64,000 nt of DNA from Escherichia coli (GTDB lineage Bacteria; Pseudomonadota; Gammaproteobacteria; Enterobacterales; Enterobacteriaceae), in assembly GCA_025336685.1 (NCBI GenBank), contig GCA_025336685.1_4717.1. The stretch is one strand, 5' to 3'. This document shows positions 8,034-48,414 of this stretch, piece after piece. The notes under the pieces were generated by a model. It was not told the origin of the DNA. It did no database searches and saw only the letters and a list, made by a program, of their open reading frames with translations. Numbering within the stretch: the stretch's first letter is position 1; the number at the start of each line of letters is the position of its first letter. The translations under genes and the position numbers were made by a program.

Positions 8034-8054
8034 TCATCATGAAGGTAATATAGT
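8034..8054 (+). promoter_or_regulatory. Conserved 21-mer CATCATGAAGGTAATATAGTC (candidate promoter), about 32 nt upstream of the 8087 start
   Basis: Identical 21-mer recurs at 35790..35810; contains a TATAGT (-10-like) hexamer with ATGACA 16 nt upstream at this site. Confidence 0.45.
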
Positions 8055-14537: not shown

Positions 14538-15980
14538 TCAGACTCGCGATATGTTACCGCGTACGCTTTCGTTTCCGGCGATGCTAAATAGCTCAAGTTC
14601 AGACGTTGAGGCAGGTCTAACCCTACGACATGGTACAAGACGTAACACCCTGCTTATCGGGGTCAGTCTGTAATTCACGTCCACCTTCAAGCTTTTCGTA
14701 ACCTGCGTAATCGCACTATGCACTTTGGTAACCGTTTTACCTTTCTTATCCTTTTCTGTTTCGAAAAGAACGTCGGTAATTTCGGTTACGACCAGACGCG
14801 GTGTGGATTCGCGGTTAGCGTCAAGCCATTCATCCAGTAACGTCTTTAAGAAGTTCAAGGAATCAATCGCACGCCAAGCAAGGTTAGGCGGATTGCATGC
14901 TTCCATTAAAATGGCTGTGTTCGATCCACCTAGCGGAAGATGCACGCTCTTACCGAGGCCTGTCGGACGCATCGTAAGATCGCACTCACCCTCAAGAATA
15001 TCGCGATGATGTTGACGATGATGAAGGTTATCCGTGTATGCGATATACACTGACTCCGTTGTCCCATGCTCTAATACCCGAGATGCATGCGTACGCATAA
15101 TCTCAATAGCATCATCCGGCTTGCTTAAATAGATAACACTGTACGCGCTATCGCTAATCCTTTTCCCTAACTCAAGACGTCCCTTGTTGTCTTTATCGGT
15201 GTTACCACCGAAATAGATGTAGCGACCATCTTTCGCACGCTCTTGCTGCTGATTGGTGGTAAAGTAGCAGCGCGAGAACGTAAAGAACGGACTTATTTCC
15301 GGTTCGGGACTCCAATACCCCTTAGCCGGAAGTTCGCGACGTATTTGGGTTCTTACAGCCCAGTCCTGGTTTTGTGATAGATATGTTCCACGCGTTGCCA
15401 ACATATCCGCACGTTCGTTACCAACATTGCCCTCATGTCCAGGAACGTAACGCAGCGAAATATCGATAGCGTCGCGCTTCGCATCCCTTATCGCACTATC
15501 GAGTTTCCGCCACCGTTCCGCATTCATTAACGGTTTATTGTCGGATTTAACCCAGTTGTTCTCTCGCCAGTTAGCAAGATGGTTGGTGGCACCTACAACA
15601 ACATATTGGCTGTCCGACAACAGCTGGATCCGTTTTGCCCCCTTTGCTTTTCCAAGTTCAATCGCACGTATTGCAGCATCCAACTCAGCCTGATTGTTCG
15701 TTACGTTGAAACCCAAAGCCTCTAACTCATCCACGTATTCCTTGGGTTCGACCAGCACAGCGTCTTTAGGAAAGTTGAGTTTAGGGTCAACATAACCGTA
15801 TTGTGTTGGTTTGGGCTTTCCACTTTTTGAAGGTTCCAAGGTGCCTTTTATTTCTTTCACCATATCGTAGGTGTAGCCATGCACGCCATAGCCACCATAC
15901 CCACTCGATGTTGGACGGGATCCTCCATCACAGTAGAAAACGGCACCAAGCTCAGTATTTCCTGCCATTGTAAACCTCAT
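14538..15980 (-). CDS. RNase H (RNase HI-like) domain protein with about 250 aa C-terminal domain of unknown function
   Basis: Catalytic-site pattern: FYCDGGS (Asp), NNQAELDA (Glu), LLSDSQYVV (Asp), VPGHEGNVGNERADMLA (His/Asp). Confidence 0.65.
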   Translation of the reverse strand: MRFTMAGNTELGAVFYCDGGSRPTSSGYGGYGVHGYTYDMVKEIKGTLEPSKSGKPKPTQYGYVDPKLNFPKDAVLVEPKEYVDELEALGFNVTNNQAELDAAIRAIELGKAKGAKRIQLLSDSQYVVVGATNHLANWRENNWVKSDNKPLMNAERWRKLDSAIRDAKRDAIDISLRYVPGHEGNVGNERADMLATRGTYLSQNQDWAVRTQIRRELPAKGYWSPEPEISPFFTFSRCYFTTNQQQERAKDGRYIYFGGNTDKDNKGRLELGKRISDSAYSVIYLSKPDDAIEIMRTHASRVLEHGTTESVYIAYTDNLHHRQHHRDILEGECDLTMRPTGLGKSVHLPLGGSNTAILMEACNPPNLAWRAIDSLNFLKTLLDEWLDANRESTPRLVVTEITDVLFETEKDKKGKTVTKVHSAITQVTKSLKVDVNYRLTPISRVLRLVPCRRVRPASTSELELFSIAGNESVRGNISRV

Positions 15981-18594: not shown

Positions 18595-18600
18595 CATATT

Positions 18601-18633
18601 CCCTCCTCCTTCCCATGTTGGGTTGGAGGAGGG
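18601..18633 (+). terminator. Hairpin CCCTCCTCCTTCCC-loop-GGGTTGGAGGAGGG, member of a recurring hairpin family
   Basis: 14-nt arms with a central TT/TT mismatch, immediately after the stop of 17968..18594. Confidence 0.55.
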
Positions 18634-18647
18634 TTATGCCGTCAAGC

Positions 18648-18694
18648 AAAAAAAAAAAAAATGATAGCCACGGACCCTCCAATGAAGGAGGGTC
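18648..18694 (-). terminator. Minus-strand terminator candidate: hairpin GACCCTCC/GGAGGGTC followed on the minus strand by a U14 tract
   Basis: 8-bp stem at 18673..18694; A14 homopolymer at 18648..18661 on the plus strand; located just after the stop of 18707..19411. Confidence 0.45.
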
Positions 18695-18706
18695 GTGACC
18701 GTCAGT

Positions 18707-21160: not shown

Positions 21161-21178
21161 CTAGGTAATATAGCCGTG
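21161..21178 (+). promoter_or_regulatory. Promoter-like motif CTAGGTAATATAGCCGTG in a divergent intergenic region
   Basis: Shares the AGGTAATATAG core with the 21-mers at 8034 and 35790; lies upstream of the plus-strand gene 21283..22104. Confidence 0.35.
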
Positions 21179-29766: not shown

Positions 29767-29789
29767 AACAAAAAAGAAATACAACATAG

Positions 29790-29824
29790 CCTCCTTCCCC
29801 GGCCTTGGTGGCTAGGGAAGGAGG
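29790..29824. terminator. Family hairpin CCTCCTTCCC-loop-GGGAAGGAGG at a convergent junction
   Basis: 10-bp perfect stem with a 15-nt loop, between 28678..29766 (+) and 29840..30277 (-). Confidence 0.5.
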
Positions 29825-29839
29825 ATTATAGTTTATTTA

Positions 29840-30277
29840 TTAACGCACTGCGTTCTGGATGATTTCTTTTCCGATCTTAACCAAAGCAGGTATCTGCACA
29901 GCGGTTGCGCCTCGATGACGAAACGCGGTCGTTAACGCGGTATCGATACTCACAGCACGTCCGTGGAGACGATCGAAGTAGACTTGCGTGATTGCAGCGG
30001 CGTAATCCTTTCGCTGTTTCTTGGTTTGGTTTAACAGCGCCGCACTATGACTAACGATGAAGTAAGCGATTAAGAAGAACGCCGCCGACCGCGAACCGGG
30101 TAGAAAACCTTGTCGCTTAGGAAGCATCTCACAATCGCGAACAGTATTATCATTCGCGAGCTCATCCATGTCAACACAGCATAATTTTGCATAGGTGTGG
30201 AGATAGTGGGTAAAAGCTGAATTTAACATGTTTCTTTCCTCGATTACAATGAGTTCAATGTATAGCTTAAACGTCAC
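29840..30277 (-). CDS. Small hypothetical protein with one hydrophobic segment (start uncertain; internal ATG at about 30229)
   Basis: ORF with hydrophobic stretch AAFFLIAYFIVSHSAALL. Confidence 0.4.
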   Translation of the reverse strand: MTFKLYIELIVIEERNMLNSAFTHYLHTYAKLCCVDMDELANDNTVRDCEMLPKRQGFLPGSRSAAFFLIAYFIVSHSAALLNQTKKQRKDYAAAITQVYFDRLHGRAVSIDTALTTAFRHRGATAVQIPALVKIGKEIIQNAVR

Positions 30278-30335
30278 AGAACGACGTGTAGCGGTTTGTT
30301 TTAATTTCTAAGGGGTTTCCTTATCTAAGATTGAA

Positions 30336-30698
30336 TTAAAGCGTTCTGAAGAGTTCTGTAGCGTTCTCGTCACGTAGACAGGCTTCGTTCAACAATTCAG
30401 CTAACAGCTTCGACCGAACTTCAACAAATGTCCTGAGGCGATGCTCCCATTCTAAACGGATGGTGTAAGTATTATCCAGGTTTTTGTAATCAACGACAGA
30501 TACCGAGCAGCGGGGTTCACGTTTGTTCACAGCACCCCAAACATCTTGAATGATCGCCTTACCTTTCTCAGTACATGTAAACGTTATAACGTAATGATTG
30601 TTCGATGCTTCAACACGAACATCAATAAATTCGTTTTGTAATGTCGAGACCTTGGTTAGACGCTCAATCGCGAGCGATAACCCAACACGTTGTTGCAT
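30336..30698 (-). CDS. Small protein, paralogue family A (1 of 3)
   Basis: Shares the hxFxC(T/S)xxGKxhh(E/Q)xx(W/Y/F) ... WE motif with 30700..31125 and 31127..31543. Confidence 0.5.
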   Translation of the reverse strand: MQQRVGLSLAIERLTKVSTLQNEFIDVRVEASNNHYVITFTCTEKGKAIIQDVWGAVNKREPRCSVSVVDYKNLDNTYTIRLEWEHRLRTFVEVRSKLLAELLNEACLRDENATELFRTL

Positions 30699-30699
30699 A

Positions 30700-31125
30700 T
30701 CAAATCCCCTCTTTCAGAATCTCATTAAGGCTGTCAGTAATCCAGTCGAACTTCGTCTTAATCATGGCTGGGTTCAATCCGTATACTTCCCACACAAGCT
30801 GCGGTTTATGTGTTCCATCGTCCAAACAAAGCACATCGATTGAGAGCATCATACCGCCCGTCAATTTCATGTTCTCACAACTACGAAGATATGCGGATTC
30901 TAGCATTACTTTCCCTAACGCGGTGCAAGCAAACGTTAACCGGGAAGAATACAGGTACGATGAAGTTTTACAGTAGGTTGCTGATATCGGTTGAATATGT
31001 TTGCGGAGTTTGGCGTCTTCACGTAAGAGCAGTAACGTGCGATGTAAACGCGTATGCTCGGTAACCGATGGGCTATATTCACCGATACGCTCTTCGGCGA
31101 CTGATTCAGGCCATTTAATTTCCAT
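30700..31125 (-). CDS. Small protein, paralogue family A (2 of 3)
   Basis: LTFACTALGKVMLESAYL ... VWEVY; abuts its neighbours with 1-2 nt gaps. Confidence 0.5.
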   Translation of the reverse strand: MEIKWPESVAEERIGEYSPSVTEHTRLHRTLLLLREDAKLRKHIQPISATYCKTSSYLYSSRLTFACTALGKVMLESAYLRSCENMKLTGGMMLSIDVLCLDDGTHKPQLVWEVYGLNPAMIKTKFDWITDSLNEILKEGI

Positions 31126-31126
31126 G

Positions 31127-31543
31127 TTATCTTCCTCGATTTTCTAGTTGAGACACAATACCATCAGCAACGTAATGCAACTGGACATTAAAATCCAACG
31201 ACGATACTGCGGAAATTGACCAGCAGGCATTTGAAGCCCAATACAACCCACCTACACCCAAAGAGACTTCCCACGTTAACTTCGTTATGACGTCTCTAGC
31301 TCGCTGTTCACTATATCGAAACGCGTTTTCCAACAATGTTTTTCCCGTTTGTGAACATAAAAAGCAAAGTTTCACATCTGTGCCGGTCTTTTCAAAATCA
31401 AACAATCGAAAATGGTCAACCAAAGAGGGGGTGGAGGCTAGGCATTGCAATGCGTCTTCCAATGCAAGATGGTCTAGCGTTTCTAAGTTTTTGCATGGCT
31501 GCTTTGGTGCGAGTGCGATTGATTTGTGGAATACAACATTCAT
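31127..31543 (-). CDS. Small protein, paralogue family A (3 of 3)
   Basis: LCFLCSQTGKTLLENAFRY ... TWEVS. Confidence 0.5.
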   Translation of the reverse strand: MNVVFHKSIALAPKQPCKNLETLDHLALEDALQCLASTPSLVDHFRLFDFEKTGTDVKLCFLCSQTGKTLLENAFRYSEQRARDVITKLTWEVSLGVGGLYWASNACWSISAVSSLDFNVQLHYVADGIVSQLENRGR

Positions 31544-31591
31544 GATTAGTTCCTCGTAGTGTTAAGTGGGGACAGATGTGTCCCCGGATAG

Positions 31592-32062
31592 TTAGATTAC
31601 ATCCCAAGCCGTGTTAGGTATGGGTTGATTACGATCGATGTAATACATCACGCTTTCTTTAAGCTTGGTTAACGCGTCAGCAACGATGTTCTCCACGGTT
31701 ATCACCTTTTCCATGTTGCCCATTGTATCCTGCCATGTAAACCAATCATTGATGTTATCGATGTATAGGGACTCATCGTCATCCGTCATGACCTGTATAT
31801 TTTCACGGCGATCGCGGGTTGTATACAACGGTGTTTGTACATTCGTTCTAACACGCGTCCAAAGCTTCTCTAGAAAGTTCGACGGTTGATTATTCGTAGC
31901 GATAATAAGCTCACTACGTACTGAATGTTCTCCTCGCTTTTCAATAGCAAATAAACCATCGTAAGTGATGTTCATCAATTTACGGAGGTCATCGTTGCTG
32001 TTCCAGTCTTTTACAACAGCAGGAAGTCGGCTATTGTAACCTTCAGGCAATCTCTCAATCAT
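31592..32062 (-). CDS. Hypothetical protein (156 aa)
   Basis: ORF in the same co-directional block. Confidence 0.45.
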   Translation of the reverse strand: MIERLPEGYNSRLPAVVKDWNSNDDLRKLMNITYDGLFAIEKRGEHSVRSELIIATNNQPSNFLEKLWTRVRTNVQTPLYTTRDRRENIQVMTDDDESLYIDNINDWFTWQDTMGNMEKVITVENIVADALTKLKESVMYYIDRNQPIPNTAWDVI

Positions 32063-32492
32063 CGGTTTCTGCTCCTATATCACGTTTGAGGTCGGCCATC
32101 AGTTTTTCATAATGGTCTTTTATCACGTTCGCAATAACGAATTGCACTTTTCTCACTAGCTGCTCATCGGCATCACTGAATGTAAAAAGCTCACACACAT
32201 CAATCGGTTGTGATGCACCACCAATACGGTAGGTTTTAGTCGATGCGCGCTCAGCAATGACGGGGAGCGGTTCCACAGCGTTCAGTGCGGTACAGATTTC
32301 CGTAACGAGTTCTTGAATGCTGCTTCTGCCTTCGATAATAACAGAACAGCGATAGACATCCACCTCGTTAAGCCGTTCAACGACATCCGCCCTGATTTTG
32401 AAATTTCCAATAAGCGAGCTCACCAAAGTGCTATGCCAGTTGTTCACCACCCCGACCAACAGCGGATGATTCTCAAGATCTCTTCTATTCAT
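32055..32492 (-). CDS. Hypothetical protein (145 aa)
   Basis: ORF overlapping the downstream start by 8 nt (coupled). Confidence 0.45.
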   Translation of the reverse strand: MNRRDLENHPLLVGVVNNWHSTLVSSLIGNFKIRADVVERLNEVDVYRCSVIIEGRSSIQELVTEICTALNAVEPLPVIAERASTKTYRIGGASQPIDVCELFTFSDADEQLVRKVQFVIANVIKDHYEKLMADLKRDIGAETDD

Positions 32493-32571: not shown

Positions 32572-32847
32572 TCATGCAGCTTTACAGCTCGCGTAACATA
32601 CCAGTGTTCCGTTGTTGATTGCCTCAACAACATCCTGGGTCAGTTTGGTCGCAAGTTTATTATCCGCACTCGGTACGTAATAACCTTCTCCTGTTTCAGT
32701 GACTAGGCGATAACGTACTAATCCTACCGCACGCTCGACGCGTAGCACCTTTTCAAGTTTGTGTTTGATGATCTTCGTCAGGCTGACGGCGTCTGATGCG
32801 TAGATTGCTTTATAAACCTTGTTCTTTGCTGTCGGTTTCATCAACAT
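32572..32847 (-). CDS. Small hypothetical protein (start moved to the internal ATG to avoid overlap with 32870..33703)
   Basis: The track ORF 32572..32910 would overlap the upstream gene by 40 nt; the internal start gives MLMKPTAKNK... Confidence 0.4.
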   Translation of the reverse strand: MLMKPTAKNKVYKAIYASDAVSLTKIIKHKLEKVLRVERAVGLVRYRLVTETGEGYYVPSADNKLATKLTQDVVEAINNGTLVCYASCKAA

Positions 32848-32869: not shown

Positions 32870-33703
32870 TCACGATGCCAGGTCAGCGATATCCCAATGG
32901 GTATAACCAACCTCGCGGATGAGCTCTGCTGTCTCTTCGAACAGTGGGGTAGGGCTAATAACCGGTAACCATTTCCCCTCTCGGGTTATCTTGACTTCGA
33001 CGGTCTGTAAGTTCGTGTTCCAACGAACATCATAAACCAGCGCATAGCCAAGAGGATGAACAAGTCCATCTTGGTTATATGTCTCCAAAAGACCTCGTAC
33101 GTCTTCTTCGTAGGATGTTTTCGACAAGACAGCACGTACTCGTCGCAGCCTCTTCGTGATAACCTTTCCCAGCTCGATGCTCTCCCAGCCTGTCATGACG
33201 CAAGGATTACCATCGCGACGAAGAGACCGAGAAATATAAATAGAATCGTTCGTGGTAAGGTGTACCCACCCAAGATCGCAGTATGCGACAGGTCGTGGTG
33301 ATTCTCCTTCGATAACCGTCGTTTCATCCAACATCGCCACAACACCGCAGTCTGCGAACTCCGGCGATACTTCATCCAGCATCTTAATACGGCTTTCTTG
33401 GCCGGTATGGTCAGGATCGACATGCGCGTAGTAGTAATTAGGCTCTATCGCACGGTATTGCGCAATGCTTCTACGGAAGTCGGTATCCTGCATTCCCAGC
33501 GGGTGGTGATACGCAAGCTGTTGCTTTATACCATCCTTGATTACCAACAGAAGATCTTCGCGATCTGATGCGGGATCCTCCACCACGATGTATTTAACAA
33601 TCGCTTTCAGGTTCTTAACGATGCTATCTGGAAGTTTCTCAATATCCCGCGCATCATAGACACGGTTAACTACAGTGTTTACAAGGTGTTTTGATAAGCT
33701 CAT
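32870..33703 (-). CDS. Paralogue family B protein (1 of 3), function unknown
   Basis: Shares an HPLG(F/Y)-containing C-terminal domain and a (Y/W)(H/Y)PLGMQD N-terminal motif with 33781..34638. Confidence 0.55.
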   Translation of the reverse strand: MSLSKHLVNTVVNRVYDARDIEKLPDSIVKNLKAIVKYIVVEDPASDREDLLLVIKDGIKQQLAYHHPLGMQDTDFRRSIAQYRAIEPNYYYAHVDPDHTGQESRIKMLDEVSPEFADCGVVAMLDETTVIEGESPRPVAYCDLGWVHLTTNDSIYISRSLRRDGNPCVMTGWESIELGKVITKRLRRVRAVLSKTSYEEDVRGLLETYNQDGLVHPLGYALVYDVRWNTNLQTVEVKITREGKWLPVISPTPLFEETAELIREVGYTHWDIADLAS

Positions 33704-33780
33704 CGATGATCTCTCTTTGTTATTTCTACCGATAACGCGGCATAAGGGGACAATGATGTCCCCGTGTTAGAATCAACTAC

Positions 33781-34638
33781 TTACGGCTTCAAATCCGAAA
33801 TATCCCATCGTACGTAACCTGTACGCTCAATTTCATGAACCAGTTCCTCGGTTTGTTTCTCAACACCGACAACGGGAACCCAATTCAACTGTTGGGTGCG
33901 TTTACCGATGTTAACCTCGACACGCTGCAGATCATCATTCCAACAAACCCCAGCCGGTTTCACAAAACCCAGCGGGTGGATAAAACTAAGATCGTCGCTG
34001 AAATCACGAAGAACGCGCAACGTATCGATGGTTGAAGGGTTATCACAGCGAACAAGGCGTACGCTTTGCAATTTATCGTATACCGCTCGAGCTACACGTT
34101 CATCGCGCCAGTTCGTCATGAATACCGGTTTTATACCACGTTTTAGAAGATGATCGATCTGGATTGCGATGTTATCGTGAACATACATGCAACCCTGTTC
34201 GGTTTCGGTGTTGCAGCCACCGTCCTCTAACCGGTTCGGATACGTCTGATGGTCTACCGTCACAGCAACTCCTTCAGCGAGCGTGGTCAACGGAAGAAGA
34301 CGTTGTAGACTCGTTATTGGATAATCAGGCGACATCCCAGGACGGATATGCGCCATCGTACCCCAACTGTCAGGGAATCCGTGTCGGTATGTGTATTGCC
34401 TGAATACCTCATCCTGCATCCCTAACGGATACCATCGTGCAAGCCGCTGTTGCTCGCCATCCTGAATAACAAAAAGCATTTCTTTGCGATTCGGCCATCG
34501 ATGATGTTCCACGGTCAAGCCATCAACAACCGGTCTTAAGTTGACTTTGATATGCTCGGGAAGTTTATCCACCTCTTCGCGACGGTAAAATCGATCGACG
34601 ACGATGATATCAACCTTCCCGTGATTGAACCAATTCAT
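33781..34638 (-). CDS. Paralogue family B protein (2 of 3), function unknown (start moved to ATG 34638, MNWFNHG)
   Basis: WYPLGMQDEVF and IHPLGFVKPAGVCWNDDLQRVEVNI align with the other two family members. Confidence 0.55.
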   Translation of the reverse strand: MNWFNHGKVDIIVVDRFYRREEVDKLPEHIKVNLRPVVDGLTVEHHRWPNRKEMLFVIQDGEQQRLARWYPLGMQDEVFRQYTYRHGFPDSWGTMAHIRPGMSPDYPITSLQRLLPLTTLAEGVAVTVDHQTYPNRLEDGGCNTETEQGCMYVHDNIAIQIDHLLKRGIKPVFMTNWRDERVARAVYDKLQSVRLVRCDNPSTIDTLRVLRDFSDDLSFIHPLGFVKPAGVCWNDDLQRVEVNIGKRTQQLNWVPVVGVEKQTEELVHEIERTGYVRWDISDLKP

Positions 34639-34926
34639 GTTAACTCCCTCTGTGGTGCGAAAACAAAACATCTAATTGCTCCCGTTGTTCTTTTAAGTAT
34701 GCGGGAAGCTGGTCTTCCCGTACCGTTCCGATTTCCAACGTGATATACCAGCGTTGTTCGGAAGCCTGCCATTGAAAACTGCTCTGTAACCGCAGGATGC
34801 TAGGATCGTGTACCTTGCTTGCACTGTAACGGTTGAACCAATTCAGGTATCCTGCTTTCCCTTCCTCATCAGCAACGTAACGCTGCACGCTGTTCTTCCC
34901 TTTGTTTTCGTATCCTGTTGCGTGTA

Positions 34927-35709
34927 TCATGCGAACGTTTCTCCTGTAACGTGTTGTGGGCGTTGTAGCATGGTAGCATCCCATTGTACGATCCGGCTCC
35001 GGCTTACCCGCATCATGACGGATTCATCGTCAAGCCCCGGTTGCGCAACCGGCAACCAACGTTCGTTAAGCACCTTCGCTTCAACCCGTTTCTTGCGTGG
35101 GTTGTAACGCACCTCGCTAACCCAAGCGAATCCAAGCGGATGCACAACCCGTGGATAATACGTGCGAAGCAATTGATGCATCCGATCCAGTACCTCCAAG
35201 CTCGCATCGGCCATGTATGGTTTCACCATGGTAAGCTTTTTGGTGTAATACGTCCCAACGGTATGGTTCGCCCACCCGGGAAGCACGTGATGGAATCCTA
35301 CCTGTAATTGTGTATTGCCGTTCACCTTCAGCCAACCGTATTGTCCAGCCGCACGTCCCTCGTCAGTATCGATCCATGTAAGTATATCGATGAACGCACG
35401 ATCGGTGATCTCGATGCGTTCCACCCGTTCATCCAACGCACCACGTACCACGAATCCGCTCGCGCTCACCCGCGCAGGATGCTGGCTGCGATGCGCGTAC
35501 CAATTCTTGTTGCCGGTAAGCAGGTAAGGGTACGTGTGAGCACCCCGCCAAACAACCGTTCCGTTCGTCCCATCAACACAGTGTACATACATCCCATCTT
35601 GACCGTTGTTGTAGCATGCTACCTTCACGCATTCGTTTTGAACATCGCTCGGTAACGCCAGGTATTCACCTTCGGTAAACATGGTATCAAAAATGATTTC
35701 TTCGTTCAT
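34927..35709 (-). CDS. Paralogue family B protein (3 of 3), divergent N-terminus
   Basis: C-terminal VHPLGFAWVSEVRYNPRKKRVEAKV aligns with VHPLGYALVYDVRWNTNLQTVEVKI of 32870..33703. Confidence 0.55.
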   Translation of the reverse strand: MNEEIIFDTMFTEGEYLALPSDVQNECVKVACYNNGQDGMYVHCVDGTNGTVVWRGAHTYPYLLTGNKNWYAHRSQHPARVSASGFVVRGALDERVERIEITDRAFIDILTWIDTDEGRAAGQYGWLKVNGNTQLQVGFHHVLPGWANHTVGTYYTKKLTMVKPYMADASLEVLDRMHQLLRTYYPRVVHPLGFAWVSEVRYNPRKKRVEAKVLNERWLPVAQPGLDDESVMMRVSRSRIVQWDATMLQRPQHVTGETFA

Positions 35710-35789
35710 CTAAAAAGATCCTCTGTTTTTCACGTTAATTAAACAACGTATTGATTTCTATTTAACGCAATACGAACATCGTACGTATG

Positions 35790-35810
35790 CATCATGAAGG
35801 TAATATAGTC
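35790..35810 (+). promoter_or_regulatory. Conserved 21-mer CATCATGAAGGTAATATAGTC (second copy)
   Basis: Exact 21/21 identity with 8034..8054; sits at the left edge of the AT-rich region, pointing into it. Confidence 0.4.
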
Positions 35811-36415
35811 GTGAAAGGATTTGCATTAAAGCAAGGGTAATTGTTTTGTTTTAAGAAGGGATGGATGATAGCGGTATCTGAAAGGAGAAGGATTTTAAGG
35901 AAGGTCTTGATTGAAGTAAGTGAAGAGGATGATTATTTCGGTTTAAGTAAGTAGGTAAGTTATCGTGTTATTGTTTTTTGTCTTAATGGTTTTATCGTTT
36001 TATCTGTTGTTTATATAAATCAAATTAAATTATAAAGTCAGTTAAGATGTTGGTTAACAACGTTCAACTCAAAAAACCATTTGTGATACTCTTCTTCACG
36101 TTGTTCATCAGAGTATCTCGTCTATACTCATTGCATTCGTATACGACATAACCGTTATACGCTAACGCTACGCTTATAGCTTGATAACTCTAAGGATAAA
36201 AACATAAACTCGCTTCGCTCGTTTAGTTTTTCTTTTTCTTAGAGTTATCCTGTTGCTCGTCTCTAAAGGACTTCGCTCCTCCCCCGTCCCCCGAAGGGGC
36301 CGAGGTCGTGGAAATTTTACTTTCCAAATACATTTACAACATCTGTAAACTTTTACTCCAGGTACTTAATCTTATCATTAGAAATTATAAAGAGAAGAAT
36401 AAACACAAACATAAA

Positions 36416-36447
36416 CCTTCCTCCAACCCAACAGGGAAGGAGGAAGG
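36416..36447 (-). terminator. Family hairpin CCTTCCTCCAACCC-AACA-GGGAAGGAGGAAGG after the stop of 36461..37354
   Basis: 14-nt arms with one mismatch; on the minus strand it is followed by a T-rich run. Confidence 0.55.
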
Positions 36448-36460
36448 GATACAATGGTTA

Positions 36461-37354
36461 TTATTCGGAAACGTTGTAACCGAACACCGCTTTACCGTAG
36501 GTGTGAGTACCGTCAGCTAATGACAGCACCAGCACGTGGTTGTACGTAGCGTTAACACCCTTGTCGGTAGACTCGGTGGTAGCACCGTTGTAGACGAAAG
36601 TAGCCGTTTGCAGATTGGCTTTCAGCTCGGTGATGATCTCATCACCCACACCCGTCTGCTCTTTGATCAGCGTGGTCAGGTTACCCGCCAGGCTTTCATC
36701 GATCTTGGTTTCATCACTGGTAATAGCTTGTAAACCTGCGGTGTAGGTGCTGAAGTCTAACGGATAGGTTAACAGACGCGCTGAGGTCTTGGTACCATCG
36801 CCTTCATCAACGTAGGTTAACTTACCCAGGTTGGTAACCTTGATGATGTTAGCCAGATCCAGCGTGGTGTTATAAACTTTAACTTCAACGGAACCGTACC
36901 AAGCCAGCGAATCTTCTTTGGCCTGCAGGGTGATCGTCTGGATACCATGATCGTCGAAGGTAACCGGCGTAGCTAACGTATCGGCTTTGATGTCTTTCGT
37001 TTTATCTAAGAACTTCTCACCGGAAGGCGTGATCATACCGTAGCGTTGAGCTACAAGGTCAACCACGTCACCAATAGTGGTGTTAGCATTAACGTTAACG
37101 CGTACGGCGATCTTCTGGAACCACTTAGCCAGATCCAGACGATGATAGGTAACATCGCGGTCATTGAAGTAAGGTGTACCTTCACCAGGGCTAAGCGTTA
37201 AAGTTGCATCTGGAGCAGAATCGCTTTTGGATTTAAGAACGTATTTAAGGTCGGTGGGTTTGAAGTTGGCACCAGTGTCGGCGTTGAGTGTGTTAATCTC
37301 ATCAACGATAAGTTGCCAAGGTGTTTTTAAAGTAAGTGATACTTGAGCTGTCAT
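36461..37354 (-). CDS. Putative virion structural protein, paralogue family C (YxDR ... AW(T/Y)GSV motifs)
   Basis: Shares motifs with 37498..38040, 48415..49320, 50237..51088 and 51099..52046; codon usage biased towards preferred codons. Confidence 0.55.
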   Translation of the reverse strand: MTAQVSLTLKTPWQLIVDEINTLNADTGANFKPTDLKYVLKSKSDSAPDATLTLSPGEGTPYFNDRDVTYHRLDLAKWFQKIAVRVNVNANTTIGDVVDLVAQRYGMITPSGEKFLDKTKDIKADTLATPVTFDDHGIQTITLQAKEDSLAWYGSVEVKVYNTTLDLANIIKVTNLGKLTYVDEGDGTKTSARLLTYPLDFSTYTAGLQAITSDETKIDESLAGNLTTLIKEQTGVGDEIITELKANLQTATFVYNGATTESTDKGVNATYNHVLVLSLADGTHTYGKAVFGYNVSE

Positions 37355-37497: not shown

Positions 37498-38040
37498 ATG
37501 GCCTTAGACTTTAACAAAGCAGCGAAATCCCTTCTGCTTGATCTGATCAACACCAAAGCAACCCGCGCACTGTCCGAAGAAGAACTGCAGTTCGGTACTC
37601 CGGCGGCATCTTCCGAAAATGCTAAGAACACCGTTATCCAGCTGAATGCTGCGGCTGAAGCAGAAAACCTGCAGGGTACTCAGCAGTTCTACTACGATCG
37701 TCTGGCTCTGTCTGACGTTTTCGCTGATGTAACCAGCGATGTTACTTTCGAACTGCCGCACGGTACTGACAGCATTAAGGCTTCTGAGCTGGTAAGCAAG
37801 CTGGTCACCAAGTTCGGTCTGGCTTCCCTGACCGGTGAAATCAATGAAGAAACCTTCCAGCTGTCCGCAGGTACTGTTGGTCAGGTAACCCTGACTGCGA
37901 TCGAGGGTGGTATGGTATATACCGGTACTCTGCAGGTTGCCCTGACCTACGCAGCAGCACCGAAAGACAATCTGGCAACCGTTCTGGCGGATAACGTAGC
38001 TGATGGCTTCGTGAAACCTGAAGTTGCTGTCGTTGGCTAA
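37498..38040 (+). CDS. Small putative major virion/decoration protein, paralogue family C, with strongly biased codon usage
   Basis: FYYDRLALSDVF and GMVYTGTLQVAL motifs; heavy use of CTG, GGT, ACC, GCT, GAA codons; SD AGAGGA upstream; apparently monocistronic. Confidence 0.6.
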   Translation: MALDFNKAAKSLLLDLINTKATRALSEEELQFGTPAASSENAKNTVIQLNAAAEAENLQGTQQFYYDRLALSDVFADVTSDVTFELPHGTDSIKASELVSKLVTKFGLASLTGEINEETFQLSAGTVGQVTLTAIEGGMVYTGTLQVALTYAAAPKDNLATVLADNVADGFVKPEVAVVG

Positions 38041-48363: not shown

Positions 48364-48373
48364 ACAAACATAA

Positions 48374-48405
48374 CCCTCCTCCTTCCCTTACGGGTTGGAG
48401 GAGGG
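48374..48405. terminator. Family hairpin CCCTCCTCCTTCCC-TTAC-GGGTTGGAGGAGGG at a convergent junction
   Basis: Arms identical to the 18601 copy; between 47083..48363 (+) and 48415..49320 (-). Confidence 0.55.
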
Positions 48406-48414
48406 AATATGCTG

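Follow-up and report, generated by a model that had tools for sequence, protein, structure and literature searches.

The gp21 family of Goslar-like jumbo phages: an early, copy-variable set of ORFan paralogues with a possible role in host manipulation

Introduction

Fast-evolving early accessory regions are known from phage genomes, including the SPO1 host-takeover module, the hypervariable early regions of T-even phages and various anti-defence gene islands. In phage T4, alt, modA and modB are tandem ADP-ribosyltransferase genes, and ModA and ModB are early products that modify host proteins. Here, a locus on a 64,000-nucleotide stretch of DNA (contig GCA_025336685.1_4717.1, filed under Escherichia coli; hereafter the window) is compared with these systems. 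It carries three divergent paralogous genes, A, B and C, members of what is called below the gp21 family. An earlier, sequence-only reading had likened them to alt/modA/modB, which are also tandem divergent paralogues in a lytic phage; the ADP-ribosyltransferase fold with its R-S-E (or H-Y-E) triad, characteristic of Alt, ModA and ModB, was not found in the paralogues.

The window DNA shares ~88% identity with Escherichia phage vB_EcoM_Goslar, a jumbo phage of 237 kb that serves as a genetically tractable E. coli model for nucleus-forming (chimalli-) phages. The Goslar nucleus blocks DNA-targeting immunity; how the phage is protected before nucleus formation, or against immunity with targets other than DNA, is poorly understood. 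The window locus resembles the early accessory regions above in its early transcription, ORFan content, variable gene content and elevated protein divergence. It differs from them in encoding larger (260-297 aa), multi-domain proteins as a paralogue series in fixed order, and in that the gp21 family lacks any member with a demonstrated target. Early hypervariable ORFan regions of lytic phages are a familiar type of locus, whereas the gp21 family itself is undescribed.

A family of true paralogues restricted to Goslar-like phages

Paralogues A and B share 31% identity over their full length (BLASTP, E=7e-38), and the similarity of C to the other two lies in the C-terminal ~130 aa (E=1e-14 with A and E=2e-6 with B). 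Each of the three matches the family hidden Markov model (HMM) at E <= 1e-69. Judged by these comparisons, A, B and C are true paralogues, their resemblance being well beyond chance. In the alignment of 36-37 family members (residue numbers follow C), the invariant positions are L19 of an LP motif, G56, A72-H73 (YAH), W146, L159, V162, L181, H190-P191-x-G193 (HPLG), W218 and W243-D244, with D108, G152, T156, A195, V200, N203, E210, K212, L219, P220 and L248 nearly invariant. The shared C-terminal HPLG motif proposed in the sequence-only reading corresponds to a real block, HPLG(F/Y)...N...VE.(K/N), with no or almost no variation at H, P and G, but the exact pattern first written for it does not hold for every copy, as A has T at the R/Q position and B begins IHPLG. 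A second proposed motif, (Y/H)PLGMQD, is indeed common to A and B, and the shared motifs hold up on proper alignment. An internal duplication giving rise to the two HPLG motifs of A and B was ruled out (hhalign probability 1%).

Paralogue C lacks the ~11-residue HPLGMQD segment, and its N-terminus had been described as replaced; it has probably diverged instead. Aligned with the other members, it runs collinear with A and B through the LP motif, the invariant G and the invariant YAH; profile-profile comparison restricted to the N-terminal ~90 residues matches 87 collinear columns at E=0.0012, and the AlphaFold models of A and C place their N-terminal secondary-structure elements in identical order.

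All three genes belong to the gp21 family both by sequence similarity, including the YAH, HPLG and W..P / WD C-terminal motifs, and by their syntenic position between the gp22 (DUF7941) and gp19 orthologues of a Goslar-like genome. Paralogue C shares 89% amino acid identity with Goslar_00021 (gp21; HOV27_gp021, QBO63814.1), a protein of the same length that is annotated as hypothetical, is encoded between gp22 and gp20 and carries the conserved motifs of the family. Goslar has this single copy, while the window phage has two more, A and B; neither occurs in Goslar, and by comparison with it they are inserted between gp20 and gp19. A tblastn search of 50,697 phage records returned Goslar as the only match, a profile search of 5.8 billion proteins recovered 36 proteins, none of them with a Pfam domain, and an exhaustive HMMER search of 1.84 billion cluster representatives gave seven clusters, all within the family. 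The larger contigs among the 36 matches are ~235-250 kb and Goslar-like; their sources are metagenomes or assemblies of E. coli, Shigella and Salmonella. No gp21-family match was obtained in complete E. coli genomes or plasmids, and a host origin of the family was rejected accordingly. On the evidence of these sequence searches, the family consists of ORFans and does not extend beyond the Goslar-like nucleus-forming jumbo phages of E. coli, Shigella and Salmonella. In the literature searched, no paper discusses Goslar gp021, and matches to "gp21" concerned gp210-gp219 or other phages.

Contigs of 120-244 kb carrying the family (P0002, P0015, P0026, P0031 and P0035) sit in assemblies labelled Shigella flexneri, Shigella sonnei, E. 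coli and Salmonella enterica and are Goslar-like at the loci examined (L004, L007 and L009), which suggests a carrier-state or contaminating jumbo phage in clinical isolates.

Copy number, gene order and recombination

Across 12 distinct Goslar-like genomes, window and Goslar included, the family comprises four subfamilies, A, B, C and D, arranged in the fixed order C-(gp20)-B-D-A between gp22 and gp19; the locus thereby lies between a late virion gene (gp22) and the remainder of the early operon. Identities are ~30% between A and B, ~35-45% between B and D, 32-40% between A and D, and ~20% between C and the rest. Paralogue C is the universal member (12/12 genomes), and the number of copies per phage ranges from 1 to 4, varying between near-identical phages. 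The observed repertoires are C only (Goslar, L014), C+A (L004), C+B+A (window, L002, L005, L009, L012), C+D+A (L011), C+B+D+A (L003, L010) and C+B with a D/A chimera (L007). With Goslar and one IMG/VR genome carrying C alone, homologues do not always occur as multi-copy arrays, a possibility raised in the sequence-only reading.

In the window, the layout can be written C-x-B-A-y (Table 1), and the three genes are therefore not strictly adjacent. The earlier description of three adjacent, co-directional genes is borne out for their coordinates, minus-strand orientation and paralogy, except that a 96-aa gene separates C from B. Neither this gene nor the 91-aa gene that follows A belongs to the family (hhalign probabilities of 0.2% and 0.8%, respectively), which rules them out as truncated members, and no further gp21-family paralogue was found elsewhere in the 64-kb window. 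By junction reading, the TGA of C overlaps the ATG of the 96-aa gene (ATGA), whose TAA ends one base before an ATG at 34638 that is preceded by a GAGGGAG ribosome-binding site. B-type orthologues begin MNWFNHG at the same codon, and so the start of B most likely lies at this ATG, the 12th codon of its open reading frame (ORF), giving a protein of 285 aa. Orthologues of A are 60-93% identical, and the window's A lacks a ~20-aa polar C-terminal tail that is present in 297-aa A-types.

Two cases of mosaicism were detected. In L007, a 300-aa chimeric gene replaces separate D and A genes; it is 79-100% identical to the D of L003 except in the last ~30 alignment columns, which are those of A, indicating, at the sequence level, unequal recombination between paralogues. 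Over roughly its first 165 alignment columns, the B of the window matches other B-types at 93-100% identity, whereas in columns 211-270 it shares 30-43% identity with those B-types and 52-69% with D-types, giving a mosaic C-terminal third. Such chimeric genes show recombination between paralogues.

Early expression and absence from the virion

The expression class of the locus can be derived from the Goslar RNA-seq data of Armbruster et al. (Sup. Table 2; bioRxiv 10.1101/2023.09.20.558163), in which the nuclear shell protein ChmA was knocked down; that paper concludes that genes with continued transcription are early genes, expressed from the early infection vesicle. Under this knock-down, read counts of Goslar gp014-gp021 stay level or rise slightly, with log2 fold changes (log2FC) of +0.8 to +1.4 and gp021 at about +1.2 (raw reads 889/995/927 vs 798/828/976), whereas gp005-gp013 and gp022-gp036 drop to log2FC values of -3 to -7 (10.1101/2023.09.20.558163). 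Virion mass spectrometry lists 151 Goslar proteins in its complete sheet, among which gp019, gp020 and gp021 are absent, while gp022 (~580 copies) and gp023 (~2,140 copies) are among the most abundant (bioRxiv 10.64898/2026.04.21.720040). Because its transcription is independent of ChmA and it is missing from the virion list, Goslar gp21 is an early, non-virion protein, a class that fits the earlier guess of a host-takeover or anti-defence role.

The motif CTATATTAC occurs three times in the 64-kb window against 0.35 expected, always intergenic and on the minus strand, and its extended copies, CTATATTAC(CT), each lie shortly upstream of a gene block on that strand. Among the three blocks, two are orthologues of the Goslar early blocks gp004-001 and gp021-014, whose transcription persists under the ChmA knock-down. 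The longer promoter-like motif CTATATTACCTTCATGATG upstream of C is conserved in all related loci and may serve the operon as an early promoter for the virion RNA polymerase. A literature search on the TATATTAC promoter motif was uninformative, and a de novo 9-mer search of the intergenic regions returned mainly the terminator stem GGGAAGGAGGA rather than promoters. No further copy of the motif lies within the array, so that co-transcription with C is the simplest reading for A and B.

Relaxed but purifying selection

Pairwise dN/dS values are 0.18-0.46 in the gp21 family and 0.01-0.05 in the flanking core genes gp12 and gp13 at comparable dS. The genes are thus functional and under purifying selection, with a constraint that is relaxed about tenfold relative to the flanking core genes. 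The rapid divergence claimed at the outset is borne out, with protein-level evolution ~10x faster than in the neighbours and a copy number of 1-4. Among C-types, the centre of the protein (residues ~80-140) is hypervariable, at 29-41% mean pairwise identity, while residues 140-160 and 180-220 reach 75-82%, and the best-conserved part is the C-terminal ~110 residues with the HPLG motif. Apparent frameshifted fragments were seen in only one of the 36 matches (P0036).

Searches for fold and function

Searches of A, B, C and their operon neighbours against Pfam, PHROGs, NCBIfam and PADLOC gave nothing significant. All 37 members searched against Pfam at E <= 10 showed no recurrent family, and a profile search of PDB sequences gave 0 matches at E <= 10. 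DUF7941 (PF25613) matches neighbouring genes, with no Pfam match for the three paralogues themselves. No PADLOC defence-protein model was matched, and membership of anti-defence families was checked within Pfam and PHROGs. The sequence-only reading had recognised no known catalytic signature, and neither a signature nor a known family emerged from any library searched, nor was there a confident HMM or structural match to a characterised family among these libraries. A 2H phosphoesterase, defined by two H-x-(T/S)-x motifs, was considered and rejected: the YAHRSQ of C corresponds to YAHVDP in A and to MAHIRP in B, and the second His lies in HPLG rather than in HxT/S.

The AlphaFold model of A is mediocre (pLDDT 71, pTM 0.60), and Foldseek found nothing significant for it in BFVD. 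The model of C is good (pLDDT 86.3, pTM 0.84), and in structure searches it repeatedly matches OB-like barrels of the Mop/TOBE type, 50-74 residues long. An OB-like barrel may accordingly be formed by the conserved C-terminal β-β-β-α-β unit (C residues 194-242). Its resemblance to the Mop/TOBE OB-like β-barrels of ModG, ModE and the C-terminal domains of MalK/FbpC-type ABC ATPases is a weak likeness and not membership.

Candidate functions

A role of gp21-family genes in host manipulation or counter-defence is plausible. The reading that is tentatively preferred here regards the family as cytoplasmic, binding-type modulators of variable host factors, with a shared function residing in the conserved C-terminal module and specificity in the variable part. 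According to this proposal, A, B and C would be co-transcribed from one early promoter upstream of C, as one early transcript with its start downstream of CTATATTACC, and their products would be made in the host cytoplasm as infection begins. There, the proteins would bind, modulate or inhibit variable host factors, the most plausible targets being immune or stress systems beyond exclusion by the phage nucleus. The C-terminal α/β plus OB-like barrel module would supply the common function, the variable N-terminal and central part would set specificity, and additional paralogues would widen the range of targets. Several points weigh against this proposal. Neither experiment nor homology ties the family to a host target or defence system, dN/dS stays below 1 across whole genes and so gives no sign of positive selection at that level, and early expression of A and B is deduced from operon position, Goslar having neither gene. 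The presence of C in every genome examined would also fit an essential, phage-internal role in the genus, and the invariance or near-invariance of H73, H190, E210, D244, N203 and T156 (C numbering) makes an active site possible. A bolder version, in which the family adopts a new fold and constitutes an expandable early arsenal, each of the paralogues A-D neutralising a different cytoplasmic immune or stress system from which the nucleus gives no shelter and copy-number change and recombination serving host adaptation, is doubtful.

As an early, non-virion, fast-evolving and copy-variable family without known relatives, the gp21 proteins are a testable candidate for protection before nucleus formation or against non-DNA-targeting immunity, and natural phages with one, two, three or four copies offer a ready-made comparison series. 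If the family were instead to prove a genus-specific housekeeping factor, the result would be routine ORFan annotation.

An enzymatic function, such as that of a metal-dependent hydrolase or nuclease or a nucleic-acid-modifying protein acting early on host or phage nucleic acid, is unlikely. It would use the invariant His of YAH, the His of HPLG, the Glu of VE.K and the Asp of WD, and it draws support from the conservation of these polar residues, invariant or nearly so, across 36-37 A, B and C members that are otherwise 20-30% identical. A- and C-types also share a (D/E)V-x10-VExK pattern, and C residues 171-242 are ordered α-β-β-β-α-β in the AlphaFold model, an arrangement that, together with this pattern, may resemble the core of PD-(D/E)xK nucleases, which carries conserved D...(D/E)xK catalytic residues. 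However, B- and D-types retain neither the acidic residue nor the Lys (VEVNI, VNVRV), the HxT/S pattern of 2H phosphoesterases is not conserved, and no member gives a sequence signal in Pfam, NCBIfam or PDB, even at E <= 10.

It is similarly improbable that the family serves a phage-internal role peculiar to Goslar-like phages, either in establishing the early infection vesicle or nucleus, or as a chaperone or assembly factor for the adjacent DUF7941 virion proteins gp22 and gp23, which are just as variable. Consistent with such a role, C occupies a fixed place beside gp22 and gp23 in 12/12 genomes, the divergence of gp23 and C partly tracks across loci, and gp17, from the same early block, is found in virions at ~18 copies (10.64898/2026.04.21.720040). 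Yet gp21 is early and nucleus-independent while gp22 and gp23 are late, it was not detected in virions, and A, B and D are dispensable in nature. In L005, gp23 is 90% identical to that of the window but C just 45%. Moreover, the family is absent from all other chimalliviruses in the HMMER pass and therefore lies outside the conserved nucleus machinery.

That the extra copies are selfish or decaying, either mobile genes akin to free-standing endonucleases, inserting themselves between conserved genes, or duplicates drifting to loss, is very improbable: genomes that are otherwise near-identical do differ in the presence of A, B and D, inserted between gp20 and gp19 when compared with Goslar, and the chimeric genes point to ongoing rearrangement, but all copies are intact ORFs under purifying selection (dN/dS 0.18-0.46), keep the fixed order C-B-D-A at one locus without copies elsewhere in the window, and match no homing-endonuclease family.

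Locus map, conserved non-coding element and neighbouring genes

The coordinates of the array and its surroundings are collected in Table 1.

Table 1. Features of the gp21-family locus in the window and in related loci (locus prefix given where the coordinates are not those of the window)
Feature	Coordinates	Strand	Remarks
CTATATTAC(CT), copy 1	8045-8053	-	just upstream of a minus-strand gene block
CTATATTAC(CT), copy 2	21165-21173	-	just upstream of a minus-strand gene block
91-aa gene, Goslar gp19 orthologue	32572-32847	-	next in operon after A; outside the family
Paralogue A	32870-33703	-	277-aa ORF
GC-rich hairpin GGGGAC-atcatt-GTCCCC	33746-33763	-	from sequence reading; in the 77-nt B/A spacer
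Paralogue B	33781-34638	-	285 aa from the supported start; ORF to 34671 would give 296 aa
96-aa gene, Goslar gp20 orthologue	34640-34930	-	between C and B; outside the family
Paralogue C	34927-35709	-	260 aa; orthologue of Goslar gp21
Promoter-like motif CTATATTACCTTCATGATG (candidate)	35790-35808	-	81-99 nt upstream of the ATG of C
CTATATTAC(CT), copy 3	35800-35808	-	just upstream of a minus-strand gene block
~310-nt non-coding element	36068-36376	-	within the 751-bp gap from the gp22 orthologue to C
Goslar gp22 orthologue (DUF7941)	36461-37354	-
Goslar gp23 orthologue (DUF7941)	37498-38040	+
Subfamily D gene	L003:8909-9751		280 aa; absent from the window
Subfamily D gene	L010:7970-8812		280 aa; absent from the window
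Subfamily D gene	L011:7106-7948		280 aa; absent from the window
D/A chimeric gene	L007:8949-9851		300 aa; replaces separate D and A

The gap upstream of C contains a ~310-nt element with 92-100% identity in 12/12 Goslar-like loci, where neighbouring genes have dS values of 0.2-2; it lies at 15427-15741 in Goslar and is unannotated there. Its conservation ends abruptly after ...AUGGUUUUUU. The element contains no ORF, tRNA or tmRNA and has no Rfam match at E <= 1. Its predicted fold comprises ~7 hairpins, including a UUCG-capped stem and a 12-bp stem, with a minimum free energy of -90 kcal/mol (z = -4.9); substitutions are few and keep pairing through G-U on the minus strand, but the power to detect covariation is low (11/500 shuffles). 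Other intergenic blocks are also at least 99% identical to Goslar, and conservation against Goslar alone is thus not unique to this element, which is a candidate structured phage RNA or regulatory leader.

Upstream of this gap, the gp22 and gp23 orthologues correspond to proteins reported among the most abundant unmodelled Goslar virion proteins, and the gp23 orthologue is highly variable, at 48-94% amino acid identity between relatives. Downstream of the array, the rest of the early operon (29840-32492, minus strand) consists of orthologues of Goslar gp14-gp18, all of them ORFans, whose divergence between phages is uneven (37-98% amino acid identity). It also includes a 145-aa gene (32055-32492, minus strand), likewise an ORFan, that is missing from Goslar and L004. 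The early operon as a whole (gp14-gp21 orthologues) has no Pfam or PHROG match, and the 96-aa gene none in Pfam, PHROG, NCBIfam or PADLOC. Two operon neighbours, of 141 and 138 aa, may be distantly paralogous to each other, as both contain the short, collinear motif GK.(M/L)LE.A (E=6e-4).

The hairpin in the B/A spacer lacks a T-run and was not called by the terminator scan. A different GC-rich stem, CCCTTCCTCC...GGAGGAAGG, recurs in the gaps 18595-18706, 29767-29839, 35710-36460 (at ~36415-36450) and 48364-48414, is followed by a T-run in the 35710-36460 gap, and looks like an intrinsic terminator family reused across the genome.

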